A stretch of DNA of 64,000 bases from Squalus acanthias. Taxonomy: Eukaryota. Positions 6,572-62,850 of the stretch are shown piece by piece (the first letter of the stretch is position 1; every line of letters starts with the position of its first letter). The stretch spans positions 22,074,001 to 22,138,000 of the forward strand of contig CM059432.1 of NCBI GenBank assembly GCA_030390025.1. Reading direction: 5' to 3'. The notes under the pieces are model-generated. The model saw nothing but the letters and a program-made list of their open reading frames with translations, ran no database searches and had not been told where the DNA came from. The translations under genes were made by a program, and so were the position numbers.

Positions 6572-6639
6572 ACTGGTCACCACACCCAACTACATGTTTC
6601 ACGAGCCATAAAGGTTATAGTTATGAAGAGAAACTTCAG

Positions 6640-13615: not shown

Positions 13616-13731
13616 AGCAAAATACTGCGGATGCTGGAAATCCGAAATAACAACAGAAAACGCTGGAAAAACTCAGCAGGCCAGGCAGCATCCGTGGAGA
13701 GAGAAAGAGAGTTAACGTTTCAGGTCGATGA
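13616..13731. mobile_element. Penelope-like terminal repeat fragment
   Basis: Same sequence family as 54160-54364; ends inside the hammerhead motif (GTTAACGTTTCAGGTCGATGA). Confidence 0.65.
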
Positions 13732-14431
13732 TAATTTGGAGTCTGGGAGAAAGCCCAAGGTCTGAATGTAAGCATTGCACGCATTTTGGAGCGAGACTTG
13801 TTTACAATAATGCAGGTTAGGGGCAAAACAGCTGTGGGAAACTGTCCTTTTTGCAAATAAAACCTGTTCTCTCTTTTACTTGACATTCGTCTACTGCTAT
13901 CTGTTTTTATATCAATCAAACATAGAAGCTGACCTAGACCCATCAAAATTCCACAATTTATCTCATCCTTAGGCAGGTGTGGGGGAGATGGGTGCTGGGG
14001 CCAGGAGATCAGGCATTGGGGAGATCGAGGGCAGGGGCCGAAAATCCTTCGCCCTTCGAGCACACTCCAGTGGGAGTGTGCCTAAAGGGCCAGAAAGTAG
14101 AACAAGACCCAGATATGCTAGATCCAGGCCTCTTTCCGAGACTTTGGCTGGAATTTTCCCTACCGAGTCGGGTCGGGTGTATGCGGGCCACGTAGCGGGT
14201 CGGTACCGCAATGTCTTGATCAGCCCACTCTTCAGAGCCACTTTAGCGTAATGGCCTTATTAAAGCAGGCATGCGAGTTTCCTGGCCCTATTAAATGGTG
14301 CGGGTCTGATGACATCATCGATGACTCATTTCCAGCCGGGATATTTAAAGCAGCCTTGGCCACATCGCAGTTGAAGGTTCATTTAGGAGTGTGGAGGTAG
14401 TATTGGAGAGTTGTTGCTGAGGATTATAAAA

Positions 14432-18325: not shown

Positions 18326-18999
18326 GGCCGCGAAATTCGGCTCTTTTGTGCCTGCCGTTAGTGCCTCTGGGGGGTGCTAACGTGGCGCAAAGGACTTATC
18401 GCCCGTGTGGGCCTCCCGAGAAATTCGGCAAGGCGCTACTGAGGTGCTAGCCAATAGCGCTGCGCCCCCGCCTGTAGCGCCCTGGGTTGCTGTGCCGCGA
18501 CCCTTAGCGCCCCGTGGCAGAAATTCGGCTGCGCCCCACGAGGCTGTCACGGGCAGTGTAAGCGCCAGCCTTGCGGTTCAGGAGCCGGGCCGACTACCGT
18601 TCGCGGGGCACTAATTAAGGGAGGTGCAGCCGCGACCCGCGCTGCCATTTTATTTATTTTTGGCCAACCTCCTGGTCAGCCCTCCATGGCAGCCCTTGGC
18701 GTGGTCCGTGGCCCGACATTACGCAGCCCGGCACTGCATCTCAGTGCCGGGCTGCAGCCACGGCACCACGCCGCCCTGGTGGGCTAGTGTGGGCCATTGG
18801 CGGCCCTGCAGAGCTCGCAGCGTCCCTCCCCTTTAATGGAAGGGGAGGGCCGCTGAAACGCATTAGCACTACGCGTAGCGGCTGCGTAGCACTCTGACGC
18901 TACCATGCTTTGTGCTCCCGACACTGCCCCGAGAGGAAATGGAGCGCCCGAGATAACGCTCCGCTTCCTCGCCATGGCGGTAAGCCGAATTTAGCGGCC
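18326..18999. mobile_element. GC-rich Harbinger-type MITE lacking a TSD
   Basis: 17-bp TIR GGCCGCGAAATTCGGCT / AGCCGAATTTAGCGGCC (1 mismatch); flanks CAT and GGA differ. Confidence 0.8.
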
Positions 19000-19051
19000 G
19001 GAGCGGTACTTGGCACAGCATGTGGCAGCCATATGGGTGCAATGCAGGAAG

Positions 19052-19906
19052 TTAAGTAAATCTGGCCATGTTGAGACCATCCCTGGCCTTCCGGACAGCA
19101 ATATGTTGATGCCATCTGGACCTCAGGTTCTTCCTGCTCCTCCTCCTCGTCTTCCAGCTGATTTCCTCCTCCTCCTCCTCCTCTGAAGAAGAAGCTGTGC
19201 GCTCTGCGCTTTGCTCCTCATGCAGCTCTAATCCTCGTTGCTGCACTGTGTTGTGCAGCGCGCAGCAGACTACGATGATTCTGGAGACCCTGGCTGGTGC
19301 GTATTGAAGGGCTCCTCCAGATGTATCAAGGCATCTGAAGTGCATCTTCAGCATCCCTATTGTTTGCTCCATAACACATCTGGTGGAAATGTGGCTTTCA
19401 TTATAATGTTCCTTGGCCTCATTGCTTGGCCTCCTCAAGGTTGTCATGAGCCATGTCTTTAGTGGATAGTCCTTGTCACTAAGCATCCAGCTGGTAAGTG
19501 TGTTTGGTGGTGCGAAGAGCAGAGGGTGGGTGGACTTGCACAGGACGAAAGAGTCCATGACAGCTGCCAGGGAATTTGACGCATACATGCATGATGATGT
19601 TACTATGGTTGCAGAAAAGCTGCACATTGAGGGAGTGGAAGCCCTTGTGGTTGATAAACACTCCTGGGTGATGTGGGGGTGCCCTGATGGCTACATGTGT
19701 GCAGTCGAAGATGCCCTGCACCGGTGGGAAGCCAGCCAGAGCGGCAAAGCTGAGCACATGCTCACTAACACTGGCTTTAGCAGTGGCAAAGTTCACATAA
19801 TTGGCTGACTTGTTAAACATGGCATCGGTGACCTGTGTGATGCATCTGTGGGCGGCCAACTGCGAGATGCCGCAAATGTCTGCTGCAGATCCCTGGAAGG
19901 AGCCTG
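19052..19906 (-). pseudogene. Harbinger A DDE transposase (HARBI1-like), C-terminal part, frameshifted
   Basis: Motifs [70 protein letters not shown] and an acidic tail. Confidence 0.92.
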
Positions 19907-22900
19907 TGGCCATCCCCCTCTCAAACAGATATACCACTTTGGATATTGTTGAGGGGGATGGCTTATCGGGGGAAGGCAGCAGCAATCAACTTCCTGGCAC
20001 CATGGGTGGTTCTGCTGCACAGGAGGGGAGGAAAAAGCCCGGGAGAGCTATAGTGATAAGGGATTCTATTGTAAGGGGAATAGATAGGCGTGTCTGCGGC
20101 CGCAAATGAGACTCCAGGATGGTATGTTGCCTCCCTGGTGCAAGGGTCAAGGATGTCTCAGAGCGGCTGCAGGGCATTCTGGAAGGGAAGGGTGAACAGC
20201 CAGTTGTCGTGGTGCATATAGGTACCAACGAGATAGGTAAAAAATGGGATGAGGTCCTAAAAGCTGAATACAGGGAGTTAGGAGGTAAATGAAAAAATAG
20301 GACCTCAAAGGTAGTAATCTCAGGATTGCTACCAGTGCCACGTACTAGTCAGAGTAGAAATAGAAGGATATTTCAGATGAATACGTGGCTAGAAGAATGG
20401 TGCAAGGGGGAGGGATTCAAATTCCTTGGACATTGAAACCGGTTCTGGGGGAGGTGGGACCAGTACAAACTGGACGGTTTGCACCTGGGCAGGACCGGGA
20501 CTGATATCCTAGGGGGAGTGTTTGCTAGTGCTGTTGGGGAGGGTTTAAACTAAAATGGCAGGGGGTTGGGAACCTGTGCAGGGAGACAGAGGAAAGGGAA
20601 GCAAAGATAGAAACACAAGACAGGAAGGAGAAAAGCAAAAGTGGAAGGCAGAGAAATCAGGGTGTAAATCAAACATGGCCACAGTAAACAATAATTCTAA
20701 ATGGTCTAAGAGTGTTAAAAAAACAAGCCTGAAGGCTCTGTGTCTTAATGTGAAGAGCATTCGTAATAAGGTGGATGAATTAATTGTGCAAATAGATGTA
20801 AACGGATATGATATAATTGGGATTACGGAGACATAGCTCCAGGGTGACCAAGGCTGTGAATTCAATATCCAGGGGTATTCAATATTTAGGAAGGACAGGC
20901 AAAAAGGAAAAGGAGGTGGGGTAGCATTGCTGGTTAAAGAGGAGATTAACACAATAGTAAGGAAGGATATTAGCGCTGATGATGTGGAATCTGTATGGGT
21001 AGAGCTGAGAAATACCAAGGGGCAGAAAACGTTAGTGGGAGTTGTATAGAGACCCCCAAACAGTAATGCTGAGGTTGGGGATGGCATTAAGCGGGAAATT
21101 AGAGATGCGTGCAATAAGGGCACAGCAGTTATCATGGGTGACTTTAATCTACATATAGATTGTGCTAACCAAATTAGTAACAATACTGTGGAGAGGAATT
21201 CCTAGAGTGTATACGGGATGGTTTCCTGGACCAATATGTCAAGGAACCAACTAGAGATCAGGCCATCTTAGACTGGGTATTATGTAATGAGAAAGGATTA
21301 ATTAGCAATCTTGTTGTGCGAGGCCCCTTGGGGAGGAGCGATCATAATATGATAGAATTCTTCATTAAGATGGAGAGTGAAGTAGTTGACTCAGAGACTA
21401 GGGTCCTGAATTTAAATAAAGGAAACTACGATGGTATGAGGCGCGAGTTGGCTAGGATGGATTGGGGAACGTTATTAAAGGGTTGACGGTGGATAGGCAA
21501 TGGCAAACATTTAAAGATCGCATGGATGAACTATAGAATTTGTTCATCCCTGTTTGGCATAAAAATAAAACAAAAAAGGTGACTCAACTATGGCTAACCA
21601 GGGAAATTAGGGATAGCATAAGATCCAAGAAGAGGACATATAAATTGACCAAAAAAAGCAGCAAATCTGAGGATTGGGAGCAGTTTAGGATTCAGCAAAG
21701 GAGGACAAAGGGATTAATTAAGAGGGGGAAAATAGAGTATGAGAGTAAGCTTGCAGGGAACATAAAAACTGACTGTAAAAGCTTCTATAGATATGTGAAG
21801 AGAAAAAGATTTGTGAAGTCAAGCGTAGGTCCCTTGCAGTCAGAATCAGGGGAATTTATAATGGGGAACAAAGAAATGGCAGACCAATTAAATACATACT
21901 TTGGTTCTGTCTTCACAAAGGAGGACACAAATAACCTCCCAGAGATGTCGGGGAACATAGGGTCTAATGAGAGGGAGGAACTGAATGAAATCAGTATTTG
22001 TAGGGAAATGGTGTTAGGGAAATTGACGGGATTGAAGGCCGATAAATCCCCAGGGCCTGATAATCTACATCCTAGGGTACTTAAGGAAGTGGCCCTAGAA
22101 ATAGTAGATGCATTGCTGGTCATCTTCCAAAATTCTATAGACTCTGGAACAGTTCCCATGGATAGGAAGGTAGCTAATGTAACCCCACTATTTAAAACGG
22201 TGGTAGAGAGAACATGGGGAATTATAGACCGGTAAGCCTGACATAGGTAGTGGGGGAAATGCTAGAGTCCATTATAAAAGATGTAATAGCAGAGCACTTG
22301 GAAAACAGTGACAGGATCGGACAAAGTAAACATGGATTTACAAAAGGTAAATCATGCTTGACTAATCTACTGGAATTTTTTGAGGATGTAACTGATAGAA
22401 TAGATAAGGGAGAACCAGTGGACGTGGTGTATTTGGACTTTCAGAAGGCTTTCGATAAGGTCCCGCATAAGAGATTAGTGTGCAAAGTTAAAACACAAGG
22501 GATTGGGGGTAAGGTACTGTCTTGGATAGAAAACTGGTTGGCAGACAGGAAGCAAAGAGTTGGAATATAAGGGTCTTTTTCCGAGTGGCAGGCAGTGACT
22601 AGTGGGGCACCACAGGGATCAGTGCTAGGACCCCAGCTACTCACAATATATATTAATGATCTAGACGAGGGAACTAGATGTAATATCTCCAAGTTTGCAG
22701 ATGACACAAAGCTAGTTGGGCGTGTGTGCTGTGAGGAGGATGCAGAGAAATTCCAGTATGATTTGGACAGGTTGGGCGATTGGGCAGATGCATGGCAGAT
22801 GCAGTATCATGTGGATAAATGCGAGGTTATCCACTTTGGTGGCAAAAACAGGAAGGCAGATTATTATCTGAATGGCAATAGATTGGGAAAAGGGGAAGTG

Positions 22901-23632
22901 CAACAAGACCTGGGTGTCCTTGTGCACCAGTCGCTGAAGGTAAGCATGCAGGTGCAGCAGACGGTTAAGAAAGCAAATGGTATGTTGGCCTTCATAGCGA
23001 GAGGGTTCGAATACAGGAACAAGGATGTCTTCCTGCAGTTGTACAGGGCCTTGGTGAGACCACACCTTGAGTATTGTGTGCAGTTTTGGTCGCCTTATCT
23101 GAGGAAGGATGTTCTTGCCATGGAGAGAGTGCAGCGAAGATTCACCAGATTGATACCTGGGATGGCAGGGATGACGTATGAAGAGAGATTGGGTCGATTG
23201 GGCTTGTATTCGCTAGAGTTTAGAAGAATGAGAGGGGATCTCATTGAAACGTATAAAATTCTAACAGGACTAGACAGACTAGATGCAGGAAGGATGTTCC
23301 CGATGGTGGGGGAGTCCAGAACCAGGGGTCACAGTCTAAGGATAAGGGGTAAGCCATTTAGGACTGAGATGAGGAGGAATTTCTTCACCCAGAGAGTGGT
23401 GAAACTGTGGAATTCTCTACCACAGAAGACAGTTGAGTCCAATTCATTAAATATATTGAAGAAGGAGTTAGATATATTTCTTAAGGCTAAGGGGATCAAG
23501 GGATATGGGGAGAAAGCAGGGACAGGGTACTGAATTTGGTTGATCAGACATGATCGTATTGAGTGGCGGGGCAGGCTCGAGGGGCCAAATGGCCTACTCC
23601 TGCTCCTATCTTCTATGTTTCTATGTTTCTAT
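19907..23632 (+). mobile_element. Near full-length CR1 LINE (truncated ORF1 with SGNH-esterase domain, APE-RT ORF2) with stops and frameshifts
   Basis: ORF1: RDSIVRG...CLPGARVKDV...VHIGTN...DGLHL. APE: IIGITET, GGGVALL, IMGDFN, RSDHN. RT: PGPDNLHP, YLDFQKAFDKVPH, PQGSVLGP, FADD. TTCTATGT tail; GAGCCTG TSD at 19900-19906 and 23633-23639. Confidence 0.96.
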
Positions 23633-23639
23633 GAGCCTG

Positions 23640-31720: not shown

Positions 31721-31862
31721 TTTGACCTTTCGTCAGGTCGGGTCATCGACCTGAAACGTTAACTCTGTTTCTCTCTCCACAGATGCTGCCTGACCTGCTG
31801 AGTATTTCCAGCATTTTCTGTTTTTATTTCAGATTTCCAGCATCCGCAGTATTTTCCTTTTG
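31721..31862 (+). mobile_element. Penelope-like terminal repeat fragment with partial hammerhead motif
   Basis: GGTCATCGACCTGAAACGTTAACTCTG preceded by an inverted piece GACCTTTCGTCAG (reverse complement CTGACGAAAGGTC). Confidence 0.7.
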
Positions 31863-31914
31863 CATTATTTATTCTTGACTGTCTTGCTTGGAATAACATT
31901 CTCACAGATTCAAA

Positions 31915-32146: not shown

Positions 32147-32555
32147 CTGTTATATCATCTAACTGCTTTCAATTAAGCTGTTTGCAGGTTAGTTAACCCA
32201 CCCTCACTCTGTGATTGGCATATCTGTCAGTTCCCTCCCCTCCCCCCTGTTTTCTTTTCATTTGTTTTTCCAATGTTACTGAAATTCCTGTTCACCTTTC
32301 AGTCTTTAGTTCTGATGAAGGGTTACAGCCCAAAGCCCGCCATTTCTCTTTACAGATGCTGACTGACCTGCTGTGTATTTCCAGCATTTTCTGTTTTTAC
32401 TTCAGAGTTCCAGCATTTGCAGATTGTCGTCTTTATTCTAATTATATCCGTTATTTTGCTGATCAGTGAAGTCAATTGAATAAATTATATCAGACAATAG
32501 CAGGATTCATTTAGTAGAATAGATGCTGAATTAAAAAGAGCAATATAATATTGCT

Positions 32556-32863
32556 CTTCCCAAACCCGCAACCTCTACCACCTAGAAGGACAAGTGCAGC
32601 AGGCGCATGGGAACACCACCACCCCCAAGTTCCCCTCCAAATCACACACCATCCTGACTTGGAAATATATTTTCCTTAATCGTCGCTGGATCAAAATCCT
32701 GGAACTCCTTCCCTAACAGCACTATGGGAGTACCTTCACCACACGGACTGCAGTGGTTCAAGAAGGCGGCTCACCAGCACCTTCTCAAGGGTAATTAGGG
32801 ATGGGCAATAAATGCTGGCCTTGTCAGCGACGCCCACATCCCAGGAATGAATTAAAAAAAAAA
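32556..32863 (+). mobile_element. 3' fragment of the 42436-45292 LINE family
   Basis: Closely similar to 44980-45292, with A tail. Confidence 0.9.
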
Positions 32864-34111
32864 ATCTTTCCTGTACTATTGAAATATTCTTGTCAACCAA
32901 AAGTTAAGTAAGGGTCCAAGCAATTGGAAAGAATTGCTTCTGGTACTTTGGGAAGTGGGAAATTTAATTGGTGCTTCTCTTTTATGTACTTGTTCTGTGC
33001 TCAGGATTAAAACAGATTAAAATTATCCCTGGGCATCCATCTACTTTTGTTTAGTGGAGCAGCAATTCCTCTGCCCCAAGCTTAAGGCTTTGTAGTACCA
33101 AACAAAATGAAATAAGTTTTAAACTGCAATGTTCTGAATCATTTTAATGTTCAGCAATCTAGGAGCAACATATCTACTTTGCTCTTAAAGTTCTGATGAG
33201 TGTTGATGTAATCACAACAGACTAATGGTTTATAGCCCAAGATGATAGTCCTGCTACAGGCAACATAAAATAAGTAGAATTCTCTGGTGAAGACAGGCTC
33301 TCAAACTAATTTAGGCACCGAATCTTCTGCCAGCAGCTTCAGATACGTTGCCTTTTCCATCTCTTTTGTTGAGAGGGAGTCGACTTTCACAAGAATGTCT
33401 CCGAGTTATTACCTGTAAGAGTGAGATTAATGCTTTTGGTTGTGATTGTTTGTCAAATCCCTTCACCACGGTTCCTGATGAAAGGTTCCACCTGATACAC
33501 TAACTTACCTTTTTTCCTCTGACAGACCTTGCTGTACTTTTTGTTTCAAATTTGCAACATTTGCATTGTAACATTTTATCTCTGAATTATACATTTCACA
33601 ATTGCAAAGGGTAAGAAATGGAGTCAGCTGATCTTCCGCTAATGGCCTTAAAAATCCATGGGGACTGTTTTCCCCAAAGACGTGTTCCCGAGCTGGGACT
33701 TGCACCCTTGACTATGCTGCCCTACTGTAAAACACGGGATCAGCTCATTTAAATATCAATTGGGCGTTGCTGGAGTGCAACTCCCATGAAACATTGGAGT
33801 CCTGCATTGGGATGTTTCAGGTGCAGCCACTAAAAGGAAGCAATTACAGAAGAGTGCAGGCAGGCTGGCTGGGCGAGCAGCAGGTAATTACTGAGCATCC
33901 TGCTGTGAGACTGAAGTGAACGGCAGTTAGTATTAACAGATGATTATTTTGGATTTCCAGCAATTTTCAGTTTTTTTCTTTTTATTGCACATATCCTTTA
34001 CTTTGTTGATTGAGTAATTTATACTGGACAATTGTAGATTTTGTGAAGCTTTTAAATTTGAGGGGCAGGCAGAGGGACCCGAAGAAGCAGCTAAGCATTG
34101 GGAGAAGGTAG

Positions 34112-34789: not shown

Positions 34790-35222
34790 ATTTCACCTCA
34801 GGACATCCCAAAGCACATTACAGACAATGAAGTGCATTTTAAAGTGTAGTCACTGTTGTAATGTAGGAAAATGTGGCAGCCAATGTGTGCATAGCAAGGT
34901 CCCATGAATAGCAATGAGATAATGACCAAATATTCTGGTTTAGTGATGTTTGTTGAGGGATGAATATTGGCCAGGACACTAGGAGAACTCCCCTGCTCTT
35001 CTTCAAATAGTGCCATGTGATTTTTAAGTCACCTGAGAAGGAAGACTGGGCCTTGGTTTAATGTCTCATTCAAAAGACAGCACCTCCGACAATGTAGCAT
35101 ATCCTCAGCACTGCACTGAAGTGTTAGCCTGGATTATGTCCTCAAGTTTCTGGAGTGGCTCTTGAACCCAGAACCTTCTGACTCAGAGGTGACAGTGCTA
35201 CCAATTGATCCAAGGCTGACAC
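34790..35222 (-). mobile_element. Full-length DeuSINE, antisense
   Basis: Reverse complement of 35518-36010, including the tRNA head. Confidence 0.85.
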
Positions 35223-35517
35223 CACGATAATTAAACAGAGTAGAATACTTCAATATTTAGTTGTTTATGAATCCCACTTGCAGCCAGCACTGAGGAATCT
35301 TCAGAGTAATGATCCTCATGAGGCTCCATTCCTTCCTGTTCAGCCTCCAAAGCAGCTGGGGCCAACATCCCTAAAGCATATTACAAAGCCCCTTCTGATC
35401 TATCCTGGCCTCTTGAATATCCCTATAGTTCTCCCTATGACAACTCTAAGAGAGACATGTGCCTCATTGTCGCACTCCTCAGCTTCTGTTCTTGCAAGTG
35501 ACAGAGTTACTATCCAT

Positions 35518-36010
35518 GTCAGCTGTGGTTCAGTTGGTAGCACACTCGCCTCTGAGTCAGAAGGTTGTGGGTTCAAGTCCCACTCCAGGGACTTGAGAAC
35601 ATAAATCTAGGCTGGCACTCCAGTGCAGTGTTGAGGGAGTGCGCCACTGTCGGAGGTGCCGTCTTCCGGATGAGATGTTAACCGAGGCCCCGTCTGCTCT
35701 CTCAGGTGAATGTAAAAGATCCCATGGCACTATTTCAAAGAAGAGCAGGGGAGTTATCTCTGGTGTCCTGGCCAATATTTATCCCTCAACCAACATAACA
35801 AAAACAGATTATCTGATCATTATCACATTGCTGTTTGTGGGACCTTGCTGTGCGCAAATTGGCTGCCGCGTTTCCCACATTACAACAGTGACTACACTTC
35901 ATTGGCTGTAAAGCGCTTTGAGACTACTCCTGCTCCTATTTTTCTATGTTTCTATGAGACATCCAGTGGTCATGAAAGGTGCTATATAAATGCAAGTCTT
36001 TCTTTCTTTT
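35518..36010 (+). mobile_element. Full-length DeuSINE (SacSINE1-like): tRNA head, Deu domain, L2-like tail
   Basis: A box TGGTTCAGTTGG (35527), B box GGTTCAAGTCC (35570); the tail AAGGTGCTATATAAATGCAAG resembles the L2 3' end at 63115. Confidence 0.9.
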
Positions 36011-40702: not shown

Positions 40703-41077
40703 TTTTAAAATCATTGTCAGGATGTGGGCATCGCTGGCAAGGCCAGCATTTAATGCCCATACAACTGAGTGGCTTGCTAAGCCACGTCAGAGAGTTAACT
40801 AGTTTGGTGTAAGACTGGAGTCACATATAGATAGGTTAGCCCGGGTAAGTACGGCAGGTTTCCTTCCCTAAAGACATCAGTTGGGGTTTTACGACAGATC
40901 AACTGCTTCATGGTCACTTTTAATGATGTAAGATTTCTTTTCCCAGATTTTTTTTTAAAAACTGAATTGAAATTCTCAAACTGCCATGGTGGGATTTGAA
41001 CTCATGCTTCCTGGAATTATCAGGACAGACCTCTGGATCATGAGACTAGTAATTTAAGCACTAACACCACCACACCC
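40703..41077 (-). mobile_element. tRNA-headed SINE (Meta/MESC-like core) with the LINE-family 3' tail
   Basis: Reverse complement of 62487-62850. Confidence 0.75.
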
Positions 41078-41989: not shown

Positions 41990-42412
41990 CTCAGGTTGCA
42001 GGCATTACTGGCAAGGTTGGCATTTATTGCCCATCCCTACTTGCTCTGAGAAGGCGGCGGTGGGCTTCTTTTTGAACTGATGCAGTGTAACAGTTTGCTA
42101 CAACTGAGTGGCTTGCCAGGCCACTTCAGAGCGTGGTTAAGAGTCAACCACGTTCGTGTGAGACTGAAATCAAATATAGGCCCGACCAGGTTAAAAACAA
42201 TAGGTTTCCTTGCCTAAAGGACATTAGTGAATCAGTTGGAGTTTTACGACACACTAACAGCTTCATGGTCACTTTTACTGATACCAGCTTTTTATTCCAG
42301 ATTTTGTTCAAGTTGAATTCAAATTCTCAAATTCTCAAGCTGCCACGGTGGGATTTGACCTCACATTCTTTGGACTATTACTACAGGCCTCAGGATCACT
42401 AGTCTAGAAACA
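41990..42412 (-). mobile_element. tRNA-headed SINE of the same family with a longer LINE-derived tail
   Basis: Reverse complement matches 42480-42719 and the LINE 3' end 45175-45270. Confidence 0.75.
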
Positions 42413-42435
42413 TAACAACAGCAACTTGTAATTAA

Positions 42436-45292
42436 GGGAACGGTAGCATTGTGGTAATGTTGCTGGGCTAGTAATCCTGAGGCCTGGACTATTGATCCAG
42501 AGATATAAGTTCAAATCCCACCATGGCAATTTAAATTAAATAAATTTGGAATAAAAAGCTAATATCAGTAATGGTAACCATGAAACCATCCGATTGTTGT
42601 AGAAACCCATCTGATTCCTTTAGGGAAGGAAATCTGCTGTCCTTACCTGGTCTGGCCAATATGGTCCAGACCCACAGCAATATAGTTGACTATTAACAGC
42701 CCTCTGAAGTGGCCTAGCTGGCAGGACAGATCCACCAGGGGTGGTGGCACAGTGGTATACAGTCGGGAGGGAGTGGCCCTGGGAGTTCTCAACATTGGCT
42801 CCAGACCCCCTGAAGTCTCATGGCTTCAGGTCAAGCATGGGCAAGGAAAATTCCTGCTGCTTACCACCTACTGCCCTCCCTCAGCTGATGAATCAATACT
42901 CCTCCATGTTGAATACCACTTGGAAGAAGCACTGAGGGTAGCAAGGGTGCAAAATGTACTCTGGGTGGGGGATTTCAATGTCCATCACCAAGAGTGGCTT
43001 GGTAGTACCACTGCTGACTGAGCTGGCCAAGTCATGAAGGACATAGCTGCCAGTCTGGGCCTGTGACAGATGAGAGAACCAACACGAGGGGAAAAACCTA
43101 CTTGACCTCGTCTCACAATCTACCTGTCGCAGATGCATCTGTCCATGACAGTGTTAGTAGCAGTGACCACTGCACAGTCATTGTGGAGACAAAGTCCCAT
43201 CTTCACACTGAGGACACCCTCCATCGTGTTGTGGGTGCTAAATGGGATAGATTCAAAACTAGGCATCCATGAGGTGCTGTGGAGCAGCAGCAGAATTGTA
43301 TTCCACCACAATCTGTAACCTGGCATATCCCTCGCTCTACCATTACCATCAACCCTGGTTCAATAAGGAGTGTAGAGGAGCAGCACCAGGTGTGGGGAAG
43401 CTGCAACACAGGACTGCATGCATGCTAAAAGCGGAAGTGGCATGCTATAGATAAGGCTAATAGATCAGACCAAAGCTCTCCAGTCGTGAATGGTGGTGGA
43501 CCATTAAACAACTAACAGGAGGAGGAAACTTCATGAATATCCCCATCCTCAATGATGATGGAGCCTAGCACGTGAGTGCAAAAGACAAGGCTGAAGTGTT
43601 TGCAACCATCTTCAGCCAGAAGTGCCGAGTGGATCATCCATATCGGCCTCCTCCTGAGGTCCCCACCATCACAGAAGCCAGTCTTCAGTCAATTTGATTT
43701 ACTCCACATGATATCAAGAAACGGCTGAGCGCACTGGATACAGCAAAGGCTCTGGGCCCTGACAACATCCCGGTTGTCGTGCTGAAGACTTGTGCTCCAG
43801 AACCAGCTGTGCCTCGGGCCAAGTTGTTCCAGTACAGTTATAACACTGGCATCTATTCGACAATGTGGAAAACCGCCCAGGTATGTCCTGTCCACAAAAA
43901 TCAGGACAAATCCAATCCGGCCAATTACTGCCCCATCAGTCTATTCTCATTCATCAGCAAAGTGATGGAAGGTGTCATCAACAGTGCTATCAAGCGGCAC
44001 TTACTCAGCAATAACCTGCTCACTGATGCCCAGTTTAGGTTACGCCAAGACCACTCGGCTCCCGACCTCATTATAGCCTTGGTCCAAACCTGGACAAAGA
44101 AGCTGAATTCCAGAGGTGAGGTGAGAGTGACTGCTCTTGACATCAAGGCAGCATTTGACCGAGTGTGGCATCAAAGAGCCCTAGTAAAACCGAAGTCAAT
44201 GGGGGGGAAAACTCTCCACTGGCTGGAGTCATACCTAGCACAAAGGAAGATGGTTGTGGTTGTTGGAGGTCAATCATCACAGCCTCAGGGCATCGCTGCA
44301 GGAGTTCCTCAGGGCAGTGTCCTAGGCCCAACCATCTTCAGCTGTTTCATCAAAGACCTTCCCTCCAACATAAGGTCAGAAATGGGGATGTTTGCTGATG
44401 ACTGTTCAGTGCAATTCACAACTCCTCAGATAATGAAGCAATCCATGCTCGCATGAAACAAGACCTGGACGACGTTCAGGCTTGGGCTGGTAAGTGGCAG
44501 GTAACATTCGCGACACAGAAGTGCCAGGCAATGACTATCTCCAACAAGCGACAGTCTAACCACTGCCGCTTGACATTCAACAGCATTACCATCGCTGAAT
44601 CCCCCACCATCAACATCCTGGGGGTCACCATTGACCAGAAACTTAACTGGACCAGCCACATAAATATTGTGGCAACAAGAGCAGGTCAGAGGCCAGGTAT
44701 TCTGTGGCGAGTGTCTCACCTCCTGACTCTCCAAAGACTTTCCTCTATCTACAAGGCACAAGTAAGGGGTGTGATGAAATATTCTCCACTTGCCTGGATG
44801 AGTGCAGCTCCAACAACACTTAAGAAGCATGACACCATCCAGGACAAAGCAACCCGCTTGATTGGCACCCCATCCACCACCTTAAACATTCACTCCCTCC
44901 ACCACCGGCGTACCGTGGCTGCTGTGTTTACCATCTACAAGATGCACTGCAGCAACACGCCAAGGCTTCTTCGGCAGCACCTCCCAAACCCGCGACCTCT
45001 TCCACCTAGAAGGACAAGGGCAGCAGGCGCATGGGAACACCACCACCTCCAAGTTTCCCTCCAAGTCACACACCATCCTGACTTGGAAATATATCGCCGT
45101 TCCTTCATCGTCGCTGGGTCAAAATCTTGGAACTCCCTCCCTAACAGCACTGTGGGAGTACCTTCACCACATGGACTGCAGAGGTTCAAGAAGGCAGCTC
45201 GCCACCACCTTCTCAAGGGCAATTAGGGATGGGCAATAAATGCTGGCTTTGCCAGTGATGTCCACATCTTATGAACGAATAAAAATAAAAAA
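42436..45292 (+). mobile_element. Chimeric retroelement: tRNA/Pol III SINE head (42436-42719) fused to a decayed APE-RT ORF of a CR1-superfamily LINE (42720-45226) and 3' UTR
   Basis: A box TAGCATTGTGG (42444), B box GTTCAAATCC (42509). APE: DRSTRGGGTVVY, WVGDFNVHH, SSDH. RT: ALDIKAAFDRVWH, VPQGSVLGP, FADD. The unit interrupts an L2 tail. Confidence 0.88.
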
Positions 45293-45780
45293 TATAGTGC
45301 GTTCAATGTAATAAAACGTCCCAAGGCGCTTCACAGGAGCATTATCAAAGAAAATGTGACACTGAGCCACATAAGGAGATATTGGAACAGGTGATCAAAA
45401 GCTTGGTCAAAGAGGTAGGTTTTAAGGAGCGTCTTTAAGGAGGAAAGAGAGTTAGAGAGGCGGGGAGGTTTAGGGAGGGATTTCCAGATCTTAGGGCCTA
45501 GGCAGCTGATAGTTCGGCCACAAATAGAGGAGCAATCACAATCGGGGATTATCAAGAGGCCAGAAGTGGAGGAGCATAGAGATCTTGGAGGGTTGTAGGG
45601 CTGGAGGAGGTTACAGATATAGGGAGGGGCGAGGCCATGAAGGGATTTCAAAACAAGGATGAGAATTTTAAAATCGAGGCGTTGCTTAACTGGGAGCCAA
45701 AGTAGGTCAACGAGCACAAGGGTGATAATCGAACGGGGCTTGGTGTGAGTTTGGATACGGGCAGCAGAGTTTTAGATAAA
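45293..45780 (-). mobile_element. L2 LINE 3' fragment (its last ~20 bp lie at 42414-42434)
   Basis: Peptide [28 protein letters not shown]...LKTLLKTYLF; homologous to 63115-63620. Confidence 0.88.
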
Positions 45781-48098: not shown

Positions 48099-50760
48099 AT
48101 TAAGTTTGGAAGCCAATTTTGTCCCCTCCTCTCCTAAACGTGCTGACTCTTGCTGGGGTGCAGATCCATGGGTGCCAGCAGCCCTCCAAAAGGCTATTCT
48201 TCATGTGTGAGCCTTAACAATGAGCGCCAGTAGGCTTTTCAACTGTGGAATGCATAATGGCTGAACTTGTCATTACCTAACATCCATACGAGCACACTTT
48301 CCAGCTGGGGTTACGGGATAGTGATCAGGAGAAGAAACCCTGCCTAGTTTCTTTCCCCGCAAGGGTGCTGAGACCAATTGTAGCAGCCCTGGATTTTGCC
48401 TCAGCTGTGCTTGAGTAACTCAGGATGTGAGGATAAGCAAGGGTCCTTTCAGTAATGATCATTTTAATAAAAAATAAAAACAGCACAAATGTATTCCATT
48501 TTTTTTACTATGGCATTCGGATGCATCTAGTCCTGTGATGGGAGCACTTTTAAAACACTCCCTCTCACACTCTAATATGCAGCATAGTATGAAACAAATG
48601 TAACCATGTGTAACTTCTGTAATAACATTTTTAAGAATTGCTCCTAAATGCTAAGGAAGAGACATTATACAAACAAAATGGCCTCTAGTTGGGTGAACAC
48701 ATTGAAAACATGGAATAGAAGCTTCTGATTGGTTAGCAGCAGTGATTTTATATAAAAAAGAAATAACTTGCTTTTGTACAGCACATTGTCATGTCCTCAG
48801 GGCATTCTAAATTTACTTCAAATTAATTATCTTTGAGGTGCAGTCACTGTTCTTTTGCACACAAAGGCCAATTAATGCATAGCAAGGGCCTACAAATAGC
48901 AAATGAATAAATGGCCAGTTAAGCTTTTTATTTATAGTGTTGATTGTAGAGGAAATGTTGACCAGGACACTGGGAGAACTCATTTGCTCTTCTTTGGGCC
49001 ATGGGATCAGTGAAGAGATTGCTGGCTAGAAAATTTTGGTGGAGAAAGGTATAGCTGGGTGAATAGTATTGCAGAACACCTTGGCCTAGGAATTTGATGG
49101 CCCAGTGCCTGTTATTCAAGTGCAAAACAGGTGCCTAAGCATCCAATATGGCGGGCGGGGAGAGCACGCTCATTACGCAGATGTGCGCTACCCTCCATAT
49201 TGGTAAGGCAGTAAAAAAGGCATCCAAAGCTGGAGCCTGAAACAAGCATTAGGCTCTTGGAATATAGGGGCCGGTTTGAGACCCTCTGTAAAATTAGACT
49301 GCCCTGAATGCAGCTAGTGCCAGACTGGCTGTATTCAGGCAAACATCATCTACATGCGTTCGAACCAGCGGTTTTTCAAGGGACCGCTGGAGGCCACCAC
49401 CAAGAAGGTACATTTAAAAAAGAAATACTTACCTAAATGTTACTGGCCCCTGCTCACCCTCCTCCCTCTCAATCGTTGCCTACTTCCCCCTCCCGATTGT
49501 TGCCCCACTTCCTCTCCTGATCGCTGGCCCCTACCTCTCCTGATCGCTGCCCACTTCCCTCTCTTGATTGCTGCCACTCTCCCTCTCCTAATCATTGCCC
49601 CCTCCTCCCCACAGTTACTTTCTCCCCCCCTCTTCCAATTGCTGCCCCCTTTACCTGAAGGCCGCTGCTGCCAATGCAGTGGCTCGAAATTCGTATCTTC
49701 TTCGCTGGTGAGCTGCGTGGGGACGCCTGGCAGGTGTTTGCAGCTTGCCGGTCCGAGCTCAATTTTTAGGCTCTCCTTTTCCAGTTGGGAAATGCTTCTG
49801 CAGGATGTTCAGCAAAGAAGGGTTGCCCCCTTTGGGTGTGTTAGGCACCTTCCCCAAGGAAAATTGTGCACTCTACTTGAGCAGTTACAACTGACACTCT
49901 TCACCACTCATGTCTTCAAAGAGCTTAATACATAAAATAAGTTATAGCACAACCTATCTGAATTAAGATTATTTTGTGAGGTGATGAGGCACATTATTCC
50001 ACTCTTTCAAATAATCTGATTAAATTCTTGAAAGTATGCCGTTCCACCACTACTCAGCCCATCAACTCCCTAGTGGAATACATGATTTAGTCCATACAAT
50101 AGATAATGAACTGCAAGCATGAGTTGAACTTGCTTTATTTATGCACAGCCAGCTGAAAGTGCTATCACTGGATACAGTCCATCAAAACCTAGATCTTGTT
50201 GGCACCGTTACTGTACCCATAGATCCTCATGGAATTAGCAAGCAATGAAGCATTCACTGTTTCACAACTTTCTTTGAAGTTCTGCACATAACCATTCCAA
50301 CCTAAACCTGTGAGTTTACACAGGTAGGTATGACCTTAAAGCTCCTCTAAGGTACCCGCCAACATTTTAATCTCTTGCACCTCGTGTTGAGTGCCTCTGA
50401 TTTGATCATTTGCTTGGTGAGCTCTAGCTGAGTCACTGACTAACTGTTCAGCACTTTTAATTTCCTAAAATTAGCTTAATTCTAGATTCTGGTGATGAGA
50501 TCAGGTCAAACTTTACTAATCTATCTCCTGATTGACACTCTGCAGTCAATCAGAGGGAGTTTCTGAGAAAATGGTCCTCACTCCAAAAATGACTGGAGGT
50601 TAAGTGAAGATAGGTAAGTTTAGTAGCTGAGAAATAATAGAAAACAAAGAATAAAAAAGTAGAGAATATAGAAAAAAAGAGAATCAGGAAGGAACAGAGA
50701 CAGAACTGAAGTAATAAAGGCACCTTGGTTTGGGTGGAATAGAAGAGGCTTTATTCTAAT

Positions 50761-50889
50761 ACAAAAGCAAAATACTGCGGATGCTGGAAATCAGAAATAA
50801 AAGGGTTCTCTGACGGAAGGTCATCGACCTGAAACGTTAACTCTGTTTTTCTCTCTCCACAGATGCTGCCTGACCTGCTGAGTGTTTCC
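50761..50889. mobile_element. Penelope-like inverted mini-insert with the most complete hammerhead motif in the window
   Basis: 15-bp TSD AGGCTTTATTCTAAT (50746-50760, 50890-50904); CTGACGG-A-AGGTC-ATC-GACCT-GAAA-CGTT-AACTCTG at 50810-50845. Confidence 0.8.
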
Positions 50890-51354
50890 AGGCTTTATTC
50901 TAATGCTCTCTGGTCTGTTTTATCCCTGATCTAGGAATGCTTGTTACTAACACTGCATGCCCAGTGTGGAAGAATGTTTCATTTCTTAGCATTATCACCC
51001 TTCACCTTGACCACCACAAAAACACCTAGAAATCTGAAGATAGAAAATTGTCACTATAGACTAAAGTCTCATCTTTTGTACTATTGGGAGCCTCCAATAT
51101 ATTATATTTATAACTCAATGGCGTCATGCTGCCTTAATAAAATGAAATCCCCTCATAAGGCTCTTTATAGGCTTTATCTCTGTACAATGTAACATTAGAC
51201 TTGCAATCTCCTAATTGCTCAGGTATGCAAAATAAGAAAGTACTGGGTTCAGTCCCTGTTAATTTACCTGATCTCAGATGGTAGAGGTGCCCCAATTGGC
51301 CTTAGCGACTCTGCATTAGGGAGGAGGAAAAATAACCCTGTTTGCCATCTAATA

Positions 51355-53869: not shown

Positions 53870-55335
53870 TGGAGAGTGCTGTAGATAAAATCCACAGAGA
53901 CCTTCTGTCGACCTGAAGGACACAACTGCCAGACTGAGTCTTCATCTGGTGGTGAGGGAGCAAACATAAGGTAGTAACCTATTTGACTTCATCCTCATCA
54001 ATCTAGCTATTGCAGACATGTCTGTATATGATAGCATTATTAGGAGTGACCACCACACAGTCTTTGTAAAGACAACGTCATGACTCCACAAGGATATCCT
54101 CCATTGTATAGTGTGGCACTCCCATTGTGCTAAGTGGGACAGACTAAGGACAGATATTAAAAAAGCAAAATACTGCGGATGCTGGAAATCTGAAATAAAA
54201 ACAGAAACTGATGTAAATACTCAGCAGGTCAGGCAGCATCTGTGGAGCGAGAAACAGAGTTAACGTTTCAGGTCGATGACCTTTTGCCTGAAACGTTAAC
54301 TCTGTTTCTTGCTCCACAGATGCTGCCTGACCTGCTAAGTATTTCCAGCATTTTCTGTTTTTATTAAGGACAGATATTACAGCCCAAAACTGGGCATTCA
54401 TAAGGAGCTATAGGCCATCAGCAACATCAGAATTGCAAAGCACCATAATCTGTAACCTGATGGCCCTGCACATTCCTCACTTCTTGATCACCATCAAGCA
54501 AGGTGATCAACTCTGGTTCAATGGGTAGTGTAGAAGAGAATTCCAGGATGGCACCAAGCATACCTTAGTATGGACTACAAATAGGTCTACCTCCATGTTA
54601 AACACTAAAAGCAATAGACTATAGATAAAGTTGAGCAGCCCCACCACCAGCGGATACGAGCAAAGCTCTGCAACCCAAGTACATCCAGTCGAGAATGGTG
54701 GTGGACAACTATGCAACTAACAGGAAGAGGAAGCCCCAGGAATATCCCCATCCTCAACTATAATAGACCCCAGCATATGAGTGCAAGAGACAAGGCTGAA
54801 GTGATTCCAAGTGCTTTAGCCAAACGTGCAAAATGACTGGCTTATTTGGCTTCCTCCCGAGATTCCCACCCATCATACATACCAGTTTCCAGCCAATTTA
54901 GTTCACTCCAGATGATATTAAGAAGTGACTGAATTCACTGGACACAGTGAAAGCTATGGGCCCTGACAACATTCTGGCTGTATGTACACCAGAGCCAGCT
55001 TCCCCTTCAGCCAAGCTGATCCAGTACATATGTAACACTGGCATCAATTTGACACTGTGGAAGATTGCCCAGGTATGTCTTATCCACAAAAAAACAGAAT
55101 GAATCTAACCCCAATCATTGGTAAATTGATGGACGGAATCAACAAAAGTGCCACCAAGTGACACCTATTTACAGATGCTTAATTCAGGTTCCACCAGAGT
55201 CACTTAGCTTCAAACCTCATTGTTGCCTTGATCCAGACATTGATACAAGAGCTGAATGCCAGAGTAAAGATTAGAAGAAGTGCCCCTGACATCAAAACAG
55301 CCTTCGACAGAATATGGCATCAAGGAGTCCTAGAA
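53870..55335 (+). mobile_element. Highly decayed internal fragment of the 42436-45292 LINE family
   Basis: Collinear with 42920-44185 (GAGTGACCAC, GAATATCCCCATCCTCAA, GGGCCCTGACAACAT, DIKTAFDRIWHQG). Confidence 0.8.
54160..54364. mobile_element. Penelope-like fold-back insert (inverted terminal repeats)
   Basis: 15-bp TSD TAAGGACAGATATTA (54145-54159, 54365-54379); arms about 54195-54273 and 54287-54364 are inverted copies. Confidence 0.85.
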
Positions 55336-55450
55336 AAACAGAGAGATGCCCGCACAATCATGCCTAAAACAAACCAATTGCATAAAAATTCAGTGTCTGT
55401 GATCTTCACAGGTACAATTGATGCGTTGGTATAACAGAGGATAATTCTAA

Positions 55451-56189: not shown

Positions 56190-56995
56190 TAAGTGTTTAA
56201 ACACAGATGCAATTTGTGAATACACCAGTATGAGATTGAATTAGCAGAAGGACCTCTGTTTTTTTTGCTCCTAAATTCTTCTGAAAGGATAATGCGTCAT
56301 CCTCAAGATTCTTCCTCAGTTCTCTTTCTGCTGCTTTAAGGTAGCTGTTGACAAAATGAATATATTCTATCAACAAATGACATTGCAGCAAATCACTGAT
56401 ATGGTGAAAGAACTCTGTTGATGCAGTATTTAACCCTGCTTCATTTATGCTGTATATTACACAATTATGACACTGTTATTAGCTGGACAAAATGGCTAGT
56501 TTATTTATTTTAAGCAGGTAGCTGCCTAATTGGTTTCATCAATATTTTAATCATTGTGCAGTAAGTAATGCATTATGCCTGTGATAAATTAAGACTGAAA
56601 AATTCAAGTTTGCACTCAGCATGCCAAAAGTAATGTTTATATAGAGATAAACATTCTGTCATGGTGCTAAAGGAGTTGGGTGGTAATGTTATCAAAGAAC
56701 ACTGGCGCTATGTTTTTGTTTTATTATAAATGTCTTATTTTTGAAACAATAAAGAAGGCATCAGCATTGCCTTCACTGAACAGCAGTCACATATCTGCAA
56801 TACATCGAAATCTTGCAGTCACGCTCAGAAGCCTCCACTTGCATATGCCACCCTCTCACTGGTTTGCACATATCTGCAGCAGCGGAATTTGGTATACTGA
56901 ACAATTCTTGTGACACTTCCAGAATCAGCTGTATTCTTGAATGCTATGCTTGATGATGTGTATTACATTATTGCTCAATGTCTTTGGAGTTGTTG

Positions 56996-57338
56996 TGTCA
57001 GCTGTGGCTCAGTGGGTAGCACACTCGCCTCTGAGTCAGAAGGTTGTGGGTTCATAGTCCCACTCCAAGGACTTGAGCACATAAAACTGGGCTGACACTC
57101 CAGTGCAGTGCTGAGGGAGTACTGCACTGTTGGAGGTGCCGTCGTTCAGATGAGAACATTAAAACAAGGCCCTGTCTTCTCTCTCAGGTGGATGTAAAAG
57201 ATCCCATGGCACTATCTTGAAGACGAGCAGGGGTGTTATCCCCGGTGTCCTTGCCAAAAAGAACTTCATTGGCGGTAAAGCGCTTTGAGACATCCGGTGG
57301 TCGTGAAAGGCACTATATAAATGTAAGTCTTTCTTTTT
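56996..57338 (+). mobile_element. DeuSINE with internal deletion
   Basis: Head nearly identical to 35518; jumps from GTCCTTGCCAA to the tail. Confidence 0.88.
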
Positions 57339-60300
57339 GTTGGGGTGTATGATGACCGGCACAGACACGATGGATCGAATGGCCTCCTTCTGCACCGTAA
57401 ATTTCTATGATTTGTGAATATGAGACAGTATTCAGGTCTCGGATGAAATTGGAACTGGTAAAGGGTTAAGAATTGTTTTGGGAAAAGAAGAATCTAACAT
57501 GAAACAGGAAACAGCTCTGTGAATGCAGCTTTACCCTTGGAGAAGAGGTGGGATTTACATTTAAACTCAGATGGAATAGTGAGTCCAAGCACAAAAATCT
57601 ACATAGGACAAAGCACAGAGGTGGTAGTTGCTGGTTGGACTTGAGAGACGTCAAGAATTGAAAGAACAAAGATTCTCATTGTACATCAAAGAGCATGGAG
57701 GAGATCAAACTGTAGCAAATCATCCATTGCATTACTACAAGGATGAGTTTGTATGCAGCAAGTGCTCGCAATCTAAGGAAAGTCAATAGTGTCAATGGAG
57801 TCATTGGTAAAGGGTGAATAGACTAGGATGATAAGTAGAACAGATATGGAGAACGAACAGACTGGGAGAGTGAACAGAGAACAAGGCTCTAGGAAACACC
57901 TGACTTAATTTGTAATTGCTTGCTACAACAATGTGTATTATATCAGTTTTTAATTTGCTATGGTGGATTTTGTAAATTAACTGGGTTACAATGCCTGAGA
58001 ATATTAGTAAAGTCAAAAAAAGTTCAGAAATAACTGCCCAAAAGACCATCCTGAGACCATTTGCATGGCAAGAACTGACTGACAAAAGCAATAATCTTCA
58101 GAAGATGGCAGGGGGGAGAAGTATTCCTTTTTAACTATGTTTTTGAGAGAATTACTAAAATTGTTTTGATGGATTGTATGTTTCTGTAATTCTGCATTGT
58201 ATGGAAAATTCAGCATCAGCAATTTACAACAGCATTTTGGCAAATGCTATTTGATAGAGACACGTTTGAATTTTGGAAGCTGATAGAAAGATTCAGAAGG
58301 CAAAGTATTAATATTGACATGACAATCAAATAAATCCAGAGGGAAAATTTTCACACATGGCATGTAATTAAGATAGTTATCTTATCAGCAGTGTTGACAA
58401 TTATTCACCAAATCATATTTTTGGAAAGCATTTAAAAGGAACAATGATGGATCTGTATGATTGACCAAGCAGTGATTTGTTTTCAAGTGCAAGGGTTTAT
58501 ATTATTTTATAATGGGAATTCCACTGTAACTGGGAGACTATATTTTCAAGTACATTGGAAATACATTTTATGTGTTTTTTTTATAGCACTAGCGTTTACA
58601 GTACTTAATTATCACAATCGTTATCAGCATCATAAACAAATAGATAACTTTAGAGAAGGCGGTGAAATTTCTTGTAAAATTTCTTTTAAAAATCCCAGTG
58701 TTTCATTAAGTCTTCTCGTGGACTTCTGCTCCTACACCTTCTGTTTCTACTCCTTAATTGTCTTCATACAGCACAACTCTCTTCTTCAGTTGTCAGTGTA
58801 AACCTCCAGATGCAAATCTTCCCAGCTGACTAGCAGACCACAGCACGATGGGAACAAACCCAACTTAGAAATTAGATTTGATGCCCAACAAGCCCTGGCT
58901 ATGTGTGAGTGAGATCCATGGATCTGTCTGGGATGCTCTTCTACAGCTAACCATGGAATGATGTTTATCTGGGTGGAATGGGCACAATTTACAGTACATT
59001 GTACCAGAAAATCAAAGTTAAACTTAATGGACAGGTCTAATGGTTGAAATCTTCAAAATATTAGCAAATCTCAATTCTCTGCTACATTTTCTTCAATTCA
59101 GTTGAAGAAAATGACTCTTTTGATGAGAAAGCTGGACATATTTTTCAGTGTGAAATAGCATTCTGTTAGTACTGAAACATACGGGCCAAGGAGGTCCAAG
59201 GTTCAATCAGTGGTAGAGCTGCTACAATTGACTTTGATGCCTGGACAAAGGAGCAAAAAGAAATCAAACAACTCTGATTCTGGTTTTAAGTTGCCACTGC
59301 GAGAAAATACCCTGGTGAGGTAGGATGTCACTGTGCCTTGTATAGCTTTGCAACTAGATGAGGTGAAAAGTATATACTCCCCCTCCAACTGCCCCAGCTA
59401 AACTCTGATGCCTCACCTAAGTGGGCATTTTTCATGTGTGAACGTAGACAGTGAGCATCAGCAGGGATTTTGAGTGTGAAAAGTCACCCAGATTCTATCC
59501 ACGCATGCATGCTTTGCAGTAGGATTCACTGGGACACAGAGGTCAATTGTAGGACCTCTACCTCCTCCATGGCTGAGCTTAGCTAACTGAGCATATTCGG
59601 GCAACAAGCGACAGTTTGATTGAGGATGCTATCCTCAATGGCAGAAACAGAACAGATGAGGATGCTGCCGCTAAATGCTGAACAACCCTTTAATAAGCAG
59701 TTGATGCTGGCACTATTTTGAAATCAGCCCGAGTCCACAGGAGTCAGCCATAACTATCCTAAATTTACAAAATTAATCTGGAATTGGCAAGTAGATTGTG
59801 AAGGAGAAAAGCAACCACAGCATTGAAATCCAGAAGCTACTGAGGAGACTGGGCTTTTTATGTGAACGTATTCTGTTTAGAGTATGATGGTGATCTCTGC
59901 TTTGCAGAGAGTCATAAAATGCGGTTTATGTGGGAATTGTAAAAGCAATCCCATCTCTTTAATAGTTTCTTTGTAGCAGCATGCTCAGACTAGCAAAAAA
60001 TATCCTTTACCTTGGGCACTTTTTATTATTGTTTAATAACATCTTGATTGCGTATTGCGAAGTGCTGGCAATCCCAAAATAGTGTTTGCTCAATAGTCTC
60101 AATGTATCGTGTATATCTAATCTCAAGGACAGTGTGCCCATTTTATGTAAGTTGGCAATTAAGGGTACATTGTATTACAGCTTGATGTCTCCCCTGTAGT
60201 GGAAAAATTAGACCCTGAAGAGCAATATTCAGCTTTTTATAGCACCTTCATACATTGGTTCTTTTAATGCAAGAATGTTTTATTGCCCTAATGTACTAGA

Positions 60301-60829
60301 ACAACTGTGAGGAAAAAATAGTTCAGACAAGGCACTCTATTCAAAATATTTCAGCTCCATATATTTTTTTTCTGTACCTAGTGCTGGAATAGATTAGTCT
60401 CTGGTGTATCGATGCTTTCTATTTATTTGCTTAGCTATTTCCACAAAAATAGCTATTTTTTTTCCAACTTTCTTACTTATTCTGTCTCTCCGTCTAATTC
60501 ACAACCTCTCTCGCTCCAGCCATCCATCCACCGCAATACTGAGAGAATACTGCATTATTGGAGATGCCATCCTTTTAATGAGGTTAAATCAAGGCCCTGC
60601 CTGTTCAGATGTTAAAGATCCCAAGACACTTTTTGAAGAAGAACAGTGGGATCTTCGGGTGTCCCAGTCAACATTCCATTCTTCAAGCCATGACATGAAG
60701 AGGAGTTTAATATGACAATCAAATAATTGAATTGGCTGTTTGTAGGTCTTGCCGTGTGCAAAATGAGTGCTGCATTTGTCTACATGACAACAGTCACTGC
60801 AGTTCAAAGTATTTAATTGCGTGAAGCTC

Positions 60830-62486: not shown

Positions 62487-62850
62487 GGGAATGGTAGCAT
62501 AGTGGTAATGTTACTGGACTAGTAATCCTAAACCTGGACTAATAATTCAGTGATTAAGAATTCAAGTCCCACCACTAACAGCTGAGGAATTTAAATTCAG
62601 TTAATTAAATAAATCTGGATTAAAAAGTAATGGTGACCATAAAACTATCAGATTGTTGTAAAAACTCATCTGATTCACTAATGTCCTTTAGGAAAAGAAC
62701 ATCTGCTGTCTTTACCTATATGTAACTCCAGACCCACGGCAATGTGGTTGATTCTTAACTGCCCTCTGAAATGGACTGGCAAGTCACACAAGAACAATTA
62801 GGCATGAGCAATAAATGCTAGCGACACCCACATCCTGTGAATAAATAAAA
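62487..62850 (+). mobile_element. Full-length tRNA-headed SINE (Meta/MESC-like core) ending in the LINE-family 3' UTR
   Basis: Head and core are collinear with 42436-42719; the tail CAATTAGG...GCAATAAATGCT...CCCACATCC matches 45220-45290. Confidence 0.85.

Follow-up and report, generated by a model that had tools for sequence, protein, structure and literature searches.

Whether a LINE can carry the 5′ end of a SINE as a regular part of its structure is the question raised by an insertion in the Squalus acanthias genome, since in the standard view LINEs are Pol II units, and SINEs are Pol III units assembled from parts of separate origin. We analyzed a 64,000-nucleotide stretch of contig CM059432.1 (positions 22,074,001 to 22,138,000 of the forward strand; hereafter the window), in which the insertion occupies positions 42436-45292 on the forward strand and begins with a tRNA-like head and a core of about 190 nt, followed by the remains of an APE domain and by an RT domain, before it ends in a short 3′ UTR and an A-rich tail. 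The original prediction offered two readings of this arrangement, namely a LINE family that lacks ORF1, has a SINE-like head and gives rise to short elements by internal deletion, or else a one-off template-switch chimera. Our data strongly favor the assignment of the insertion to the elasmobranch Zenon LINEs (CR1 group, without ORF1 and with an A tail) as a full-length but dead copy; this high confidence covers the structure and the family identity, not the polymerase.

The insertion lies within an L2 element on the reverse strand, of which a 3′ terminal piece is found on the left (42414-42435, which aligns without offset to the intact L2 end near 63120) and the continuation on the right (45293-45777, 85% over 243 nt to 63141 onward). 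When joined in silico, these two flanks matched the intact L2 end near 63120 almost without gaps. The head and the LINE body therefore arrived together, and the proposal that a single event had split one L2 tail by a 2.86-kb unit was borne out. The target duplication at the insertion amounts to 1-2 nt at most. A second reading of part of the L2 stretch 42414-42425 is that it represents the decayed 5′ end of a short Zenon element at 41990. This short element and the long copy stand head to head (41990-42435), both at the tip of one L2 3′ end, and the fact that one family inserted twice within about 20 nt may indicate a preferred target.

That a tRNA-like head and a core run into a LINE was confirmed by an A box at 42444, a B box at 42509 and Pfam matches to APE and RVT_1. 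The head (42436-42530, forward strand), which represents the normal 5′ end of the family, contains the A box at 42444-42454 (TAGCATTGTGG, one mismatch to the consensus), an anticodon-loop-like CTAGTAA at 42468-42474 and the B box at 42509-42517 (GTTCAAATC, an exact consensus match). We presume from inspection by eye that the loop at 42468 resembles the anticodon loop of tRNA-Thr(AGU). An A box with at most one mismatch occurred in 54 of 500 random 281-nt pieces of the window, and the boxes of the head accordingly carry weight by their position and conservation, not by their rarity. Neither ARAGORN nor Rfam matched a tRNA in the head (all Rfam hits stayed below the gathering score), and tRNA-like folding was not significant (z −0.39 and −0.05). 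By eye, and with folding that is not significant, 42463-42503 apparently holds a tandem pair of similar stem-loop arms, and such a pair would account for the long distance of 65 nt between the A and B boxes. The head is followed by the conserved core of the 5′ region (42531-42718, forward strand), which was delimited by alignment with three short copies, has lost several segments of 6-20 nt, shows loose contig ends at 42616 in four runs and is present in the compared part of all seven published elasmobranch Zenon consensuses.

The original assignment of the core to Meta/MESC was left without support by two motif tests: a pair of 11-nt motifs from bivalve MetaSINE members matched with 3-4 mismatches in all four heads of the window, which is the level expected by chance, the comparison being with these motifs and not with the 66-bp Meta consensus itself. 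Likewise, an 11-nt bivalve V-SINE motif, used in place of HE1 itself, had at least 4 mismatches in all four heads. The Meta and V test motifs were those of the bivalve members in the supplement of PMC4824008. An identity of the core with HE1/HER1, considered at first, was dropped after the V-motif test.

The body of the element is coding in origin. Pfam recognized Exo_endo_phos (only profile positions 65-163 of 225) followed by RVT_1, so that APE and RT stand in the order of a single ORF, but a continuous frame is no longer present in this copy, in which ORF2 is broken by at least three frame changes and at least four stops. The remaining APE endonuclease domain (42719-43100, 79% identity to protein P0123, stop at 43019-43021) is followed by the APE end and a linker, in which small deletions and changes of frame are numerous (43101-43466; loose contig ends at 43116, 43233, 43283 and 43321, and blastx frames) and by the RT domain and the ORF2 C-terminus (43467-45226; FADD at 44391-44402 with a frameshift just after it, stop at 45224-45226), as delimited by ORFs, Pfam, blastx frames and the RT tree. 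The short 3′ UTR (45227-45292) has AATAAA at 45235, 45278 and 45284 and an A-rich tail, and shares its end with four other copies; A-rich ends are found at 45278-45292 and in the copies ending at 3591 and 32864. All these segments lie on the forward strand. A further Pfam match, to VapB (E 0.049), was regarded as noise.

Of particular relevance is the boundary between core and APE, since the head had been predicted to run directly into the endonuclease domain at 42719. The contact is indeed present, but it does not lie at the start of the domain, which the core meets about 50 codons in. At this joint (42718/42719) approximately 280-300 nt of leader and APE N-terminus, including the motifs TNxxGL and TES/TET, are gone: the proteins P0265 and P0267 give 281 and 299 nt, respectively, and the Pfam match begins at profile position 65. 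In addition, matches to the initial 500 nt of the element were obtained for 63 of 122 proteins; those of full length extend about 50-65 residues beyond the APE start of the window copy on the N-terminal side, and these residues include the first two APE motifs. Judged from these sequence comparisons, the direct abutment of head and APE is a deletion in the 42436-45292 copy, and the Zenon family has a leader of about 110-150 nt and a complete APE domain.

We also aligned the contigs of four runs on 42400-43400, and found loose ends where the window copy carries small deletions. Among the 32 listed of 92,042 contig pieces, none crosses the joint 42718/42719, and two of those listed begin at 42718-42720, upstream of which they carry 58 and 69 nt of differing sequence. 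Contig depth, which gives no copy number, is of similar size for head and APE in three DNA runs (best bins 0.95 versus 1.39 million in run X1), with an excess of the head in run X19, which is only guessed to be RNA. The failure to find the exact joint elsewhere among the listed pieces would suit a one-off chimera by template switching, or a nested insertion plus deletion, that combined a SINE and a 5′-truncated LINE at this locus. Such a chimera is unneeded, however, because a deletion accounts for the joint without a second event. Moreover, the known elasmobranch consensuses share the same head from the same base on, as far as their first 400 nt are concerned, and loci of the whale shark tie the core to a complete APE. 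We therefore reject the chimera, which has become extremely improbable.

The evidence that the head is a property of the family comes from two independent sources. The first is the supplement of PMC13343379, which contains 10 Zenon consensuses. As judged by eye over the first 400 nt, head and core open all seven consensuses from sharks and a ray (five species; 2886-3314 characters long), whereas the same head is found in none of the three from hagfish or coelacanth (two hagfish, one coelacanth). The A and B boxes are kept in the seven elasmobranch consensuses, two of which have deletions near the boxes, and the full-length ones begin, like SINEs, a few bases ahead of the A box. In two of them the interval from the core to APE motif I falls inside the 400 nt, which leaves no space for an ORF1. 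The window copy starts at the first base of SquAca_Zenon-1, with 83 of the first 93 nt equal by eye, and four of the differences between these two heads recur as minority alleles in the contigs of the four runs. It should be noted here that the seven elasmobranch consensuses share ancestry and hence count as one origin.

The second source consists of gene models from the whale shark, which are independent of PMC13343379 and show core, short leader and complete APE in this order. Of 35 close proteins, 23 were tested for a translated core upstream of APE, the omitted ones being 9 with fewer than 8 upstream residues and 3 that nearly duplicate P0130. In three of the tested proteins the core was detected, translated from its sense strand (P0269, z=18.9; P0158, z=6.8; P0267, z=6.7). 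The other 20, most of which are spliced models that start elsewhere, had no significant core match; these include P0265, which is not significant alone, and P0002, with a score of 5.8 for sense versus 6.4 for antisense. The upstream scores of P0190 (P=0.005) and P0266 (P=0.03) were not confirmed by a nucleotide-aware score. From the end of the core to APE motif I there are 37-42 codons in P0265 and P0267, and these two proteins read the same leader in two different frames, with 11 of 11 codons compatible (5.7-5.9 in shuffles, P=0.003), which argues against a splice artefact. All the core-bearing proteins are gene models from the whale shark or EukProt; P0158 and P0002 belong to the whale shark, and P0265, P0267 and P0269, which come from the same source collection, are taken to do so too. 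Pieces of the LINE inside shark and ray gene models (P0001, P0002 and P0066; a CWC25 homolog and others) are probably annotation artefacts. Scans of sequence collections yielded no shark DNA; one distant locus came out of 232 pattern matches in metagenomes, and none out of 4 such matches in viral contigs and 173 in prokaryote genomes. Taken together, the order of parts is established at the family level: the elasmobranch Zenon unit of about 3.3 kb is made up of a tRNA-derived head with A and B boxes, a core of about 200 nt, a leader of about 110-150 nt, a single APE-RT frame, a 3′ UTR of about 50 nt and an A tail.

The published record agrees with this assignment. In the parts of PMC13343379 that we consulted, Zenon is defined by a poly(A) tail and the absence of ORF1, its hosts are elasmobranchs, coelacanth and hagfish, and its elasmobranch members are described as absent from repeat repositories. 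The elasmobranch consensuses deposited with that study (CarCar, HypSab, RhiTyp, ScyCan_Zenon-1 and SquAca_Zenon-1/2/3; PMC13343379, Genome Biol Evol 2026) resemble the window copy in having head and core, an A tail, no ORF1 and a unit near 3.3 kb, and the N-terminus of their APE, in the compared region, is the same as in the protein relatives of the window copy. Relative to the longer of these consensuses the window copy is shorter by about 430-460 nt and is non-coding. Its deletions are unlike those in the first 400 nt of SquAca_Zenon-2 and -3 (2886 and 3096 characters), which have scattered small deletions and yet represent hundreds of copies. This suggests that deletion-riddled Zenon masters have been copied in trans. 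Copies with an intact ORF2 are few in the table of the same paper (3 of 612 in a ray and 1 of 1419 in the whale shark). The ORF1-less shark Zenon has thus already been published with deposited consensuses, and its tRNA-type head appears to have gone unremarked: the words ‘tRNA’ and ‘promoter’ have no hits in the main text of PMC13343379 or in its preprint, and we found no published mention of the head of elasmobranch Zenon in the sources searched, which leaves the Repbase/Dfam entries, subscription papers, the Zenodo files of the paper and bioRxiv supplements as places that may hold one. Phrase searches of the literature for SINE-headed LINEs as a described class also gave nothing. A tree built from 36 RT pieces joins the element to a protein from a ray (100/99). 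This tree, which has a midpoint root and includes no labelled Zenon protein, places the element among insect and other invertebrate elements, apart from bird CR1 and the canonical CR1 of the window (99/98).

The window contains further members of the family. Three short elements match 42436-42718 plus the last 60-110 nt of the long copy: one at 62487-62850 (forward strand; blastn 74%, 226 of 259 aligned columns), with an exact A box and with head and core fused to the LINE end near 45214; one at 41990-42425 (reverse strand; blastn 68%, 211 of 272), joined at about 45175, in which the core is, by eye, still followed by about 13 leader-like nt; and one at 40703-41075 (reverse strand; blastn 66%, 197 of 257), joined at about 45230. 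The predicted sharing of head and 3′ UTR by these elements is thus real, with joints that differ, but the description of the shared tail as 3′ UTR needs correction, since in two of the three it begins inside the last codons of ORF2 (stop at 45224-45226). A fourth core-to-tail joint was seen at one contig end of run X19. Such a variety of joints suits repeated internal deletion, as in the lepidopteran element Persaeus. Alternatively, the short elements might be an independent, older SINE family that donated its head once and gained Zenon tails by template switching, without being deletion products. The short copies are more divergent (77-87% of aligned columns) than the younger long copies (90-93%), and exchange of SINE tails is documented in the examined parts of PMC5786205 and PMC4824008. 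However, long fragments of equal age exist (77% at 54385), the four joints all differ, the 41990 copy apparently retains leader-like bases of the long form, and internally deleted Zenon derivatives are known from the consulted portion of PMC6740152. An independent SINE family as the source of the short forms is therefore unlikely, and both readings may be true of different periods. Together with the 5′ structure of the consensuses and the whale-shark gene models, these observations lend structural support to a LINE family that has a SINE-like head and no ORF1, with the short elements as its deletion derivatives.

Four more pieces of the family, all on the forward strand, are longer forms or their remains. 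Two are 5′-truncated copies of the same LINE (2979-3591, 563 of 608 columns identical; 32553-32864, 275 of 305), one is an older 3′ fragment (7430-7760, 64% by blastn) and one is an older internal fragment interrupted by another repeat (53914-55342, 65-70% by blastn). The copy at 2979-3591 is flanked by an unusually long target duplication of about 70 nt (2928-2984 and 3599-3668, the left copy being short by about 13 nt), and the full-length copy by almost none. Other repeats are present as well: a second and more numerous SINE family (6216-6573, 8337-8641, 10487-10825, 34795-35225, 35517-36010, 56992-57353 and 60515-60819), which may be of the Deu type (SacSINE1-like); two repeat pairs (29774-30555/61662-62406 at 83% and 24352-25106/47333-48105 at 78%); and a palindromic short repeat (13607-13738, 31725-31896, 50757-50896 and 54125-54385) that is inserted into the old Zenon fragment.

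With the structure in place, we considered which polymerase may read the element. A scan for Pol III terminators revealed no run of TTTT in the 2857 nt of 42436-45292 (dinucleotide shuffle, P=0.03; synonymous shuffle, 0 versus 3.0, P=0.03), and a single one in the 5375 nt of family pieces in the window, whereas CR1 and L2 pieces totaling 8286 nt contain 25. As a control we used the long canonical CR1 of the window (18662-23635; APE from 20702, RT to 23485), which has a 3.7-kb stretch free of such runs and whose ORF2 is equally depleted (3 versus 9.0 in shuffles, P=0.004). For this reason the depletion is not specific to the Zenon copy. The retention of both boxes in the compared consensuses of five species, the 5′ end just before the A box and the absence of terminator runs count for Pol III; the failure of the head to fold as a tRNA or to be scored as one counts against it. 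We consider it close to an even call that Zenon would be read by Pol III from a promoter that it carries itself.

A difficulty for this proposal is translation, since Pol III RNA is uncapped. In the ray consensus, the only one whose first 400 nt show both features, the first ATG past the core and APE motif I are, by eye, in different frames, and an uncapped RNA would make the translation of ORF2 from such a start harder to account for. It is quite conceivable, if somewhat short of an even chance, that the structure is as described and that the coding RNA comes from Pol II, either from the head/core region or by read-through from the host, the A and B boxes persisting as a requirement of the short forms or of TFIIIC binding. 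Transcription by Pol II is the rule for LINEs, non-LTR retrotransposons being described as Pol II transcripts in the consulted parts of PMC10886601 (see also PMC5786205), and the terminator depletion of the canonical CR1 agrees with this as well. However, the SINE-like start just before the A box and the retention of both boxes, by eye, in the opening parts of the full-length consensuses of five species speak for Pol III, and selection on the short forms would presumably not keep the boxes in the long master lineage.

The following mechanism may be envisaged. An ancestral Zenon probably captured a tRNA-derived SINE 5′ module before the split of sharks and rays, and the internal boxes most likely act as a promoter that the element carries itself, with Pol III as the leading guess, giving a transcript free of TTTT runs. 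The ORF2 protein would copy this transcript from its 3′ end by target-primed reverse transcription, and internal deletions that spare head and tail would repeatedly give SINE-sized forms that are mobile in trans. Worded as a whole, the proposal is that of an autonomous protein-coding vertebrate LINE in which a tRNA-type Pol III promoter, captured before sharks and rays diverged, has been in use ever since, ORF2 is translated from an uncapped RNA through non-canonical initiation, and SINEs keep arising by internal deletion, so that the ‘SINE core’ would here be the LINE 5′ UTR; this combined proposal, which builds on sequence comparison, is put forward tentatively as a possibility that we judge somewhat less likely than not.

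With its SINE-type head, a LINE that is very abundant in sharks and rays blurs the border between LINEs and SINEs and offers a direct route from the former to the latter, and it poses two questions on one and the same element, namely whether a Pol III promoter can support a protein-coding retrotransposon and where conserved SINE cores originate. For annotation it means that the 5′ ends of elasmobranch Zenon LINEs will be scored as SINEs. Among known systems, SINE pieces at the 5′ end of BovB would be a precedent, one that our literature search did not confirm. In the consulted text of PMC5786205, RTE-1_DAn and related elements are likewise LINE consensuses with a tRNA-like sequence that matches SINE2 elements; they differ from shark Zenon in belonging to the RTE clade and to insects, and may be a precedent for the architecture of a tRNA-bearing LINE. 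MetaSINE/MESC, V-SINE (HE1 with HER1) and other conserved-core SINEs share with the shark elements the tRNA head, the core and the LINE-derived tail (PMC4824008, PMC3747384, as far as consulted), and in the parts seen MetaSINE heads were aligned to tRNA-Thr (PMC4824008) and bivalve SINEs of these groups carry CR1-Zenon tails (PMC11481361). Unlike shark Zenon, the conserved-core SINEs apparently have no 5′ part in common with their partner LINE, as judged from the same sections of PMC4824008 and PMC3747384. A further parallel is provided by lepidopteran Zenon and its derivative Persaeus (PMC6740152, in the portion consulted), where a single-ORF Zenon also yields short head-plus-tail forms that end in poly(A) and vary in their break points. 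Persaeus takes part of the Zenon 5′ UTR, but this part is described there as lacking tRNA homology and a Pol III promoter, whereas the common 5′ module of shark Zenon is tRNA-like, and its derivatives for that reason look like SINEs.
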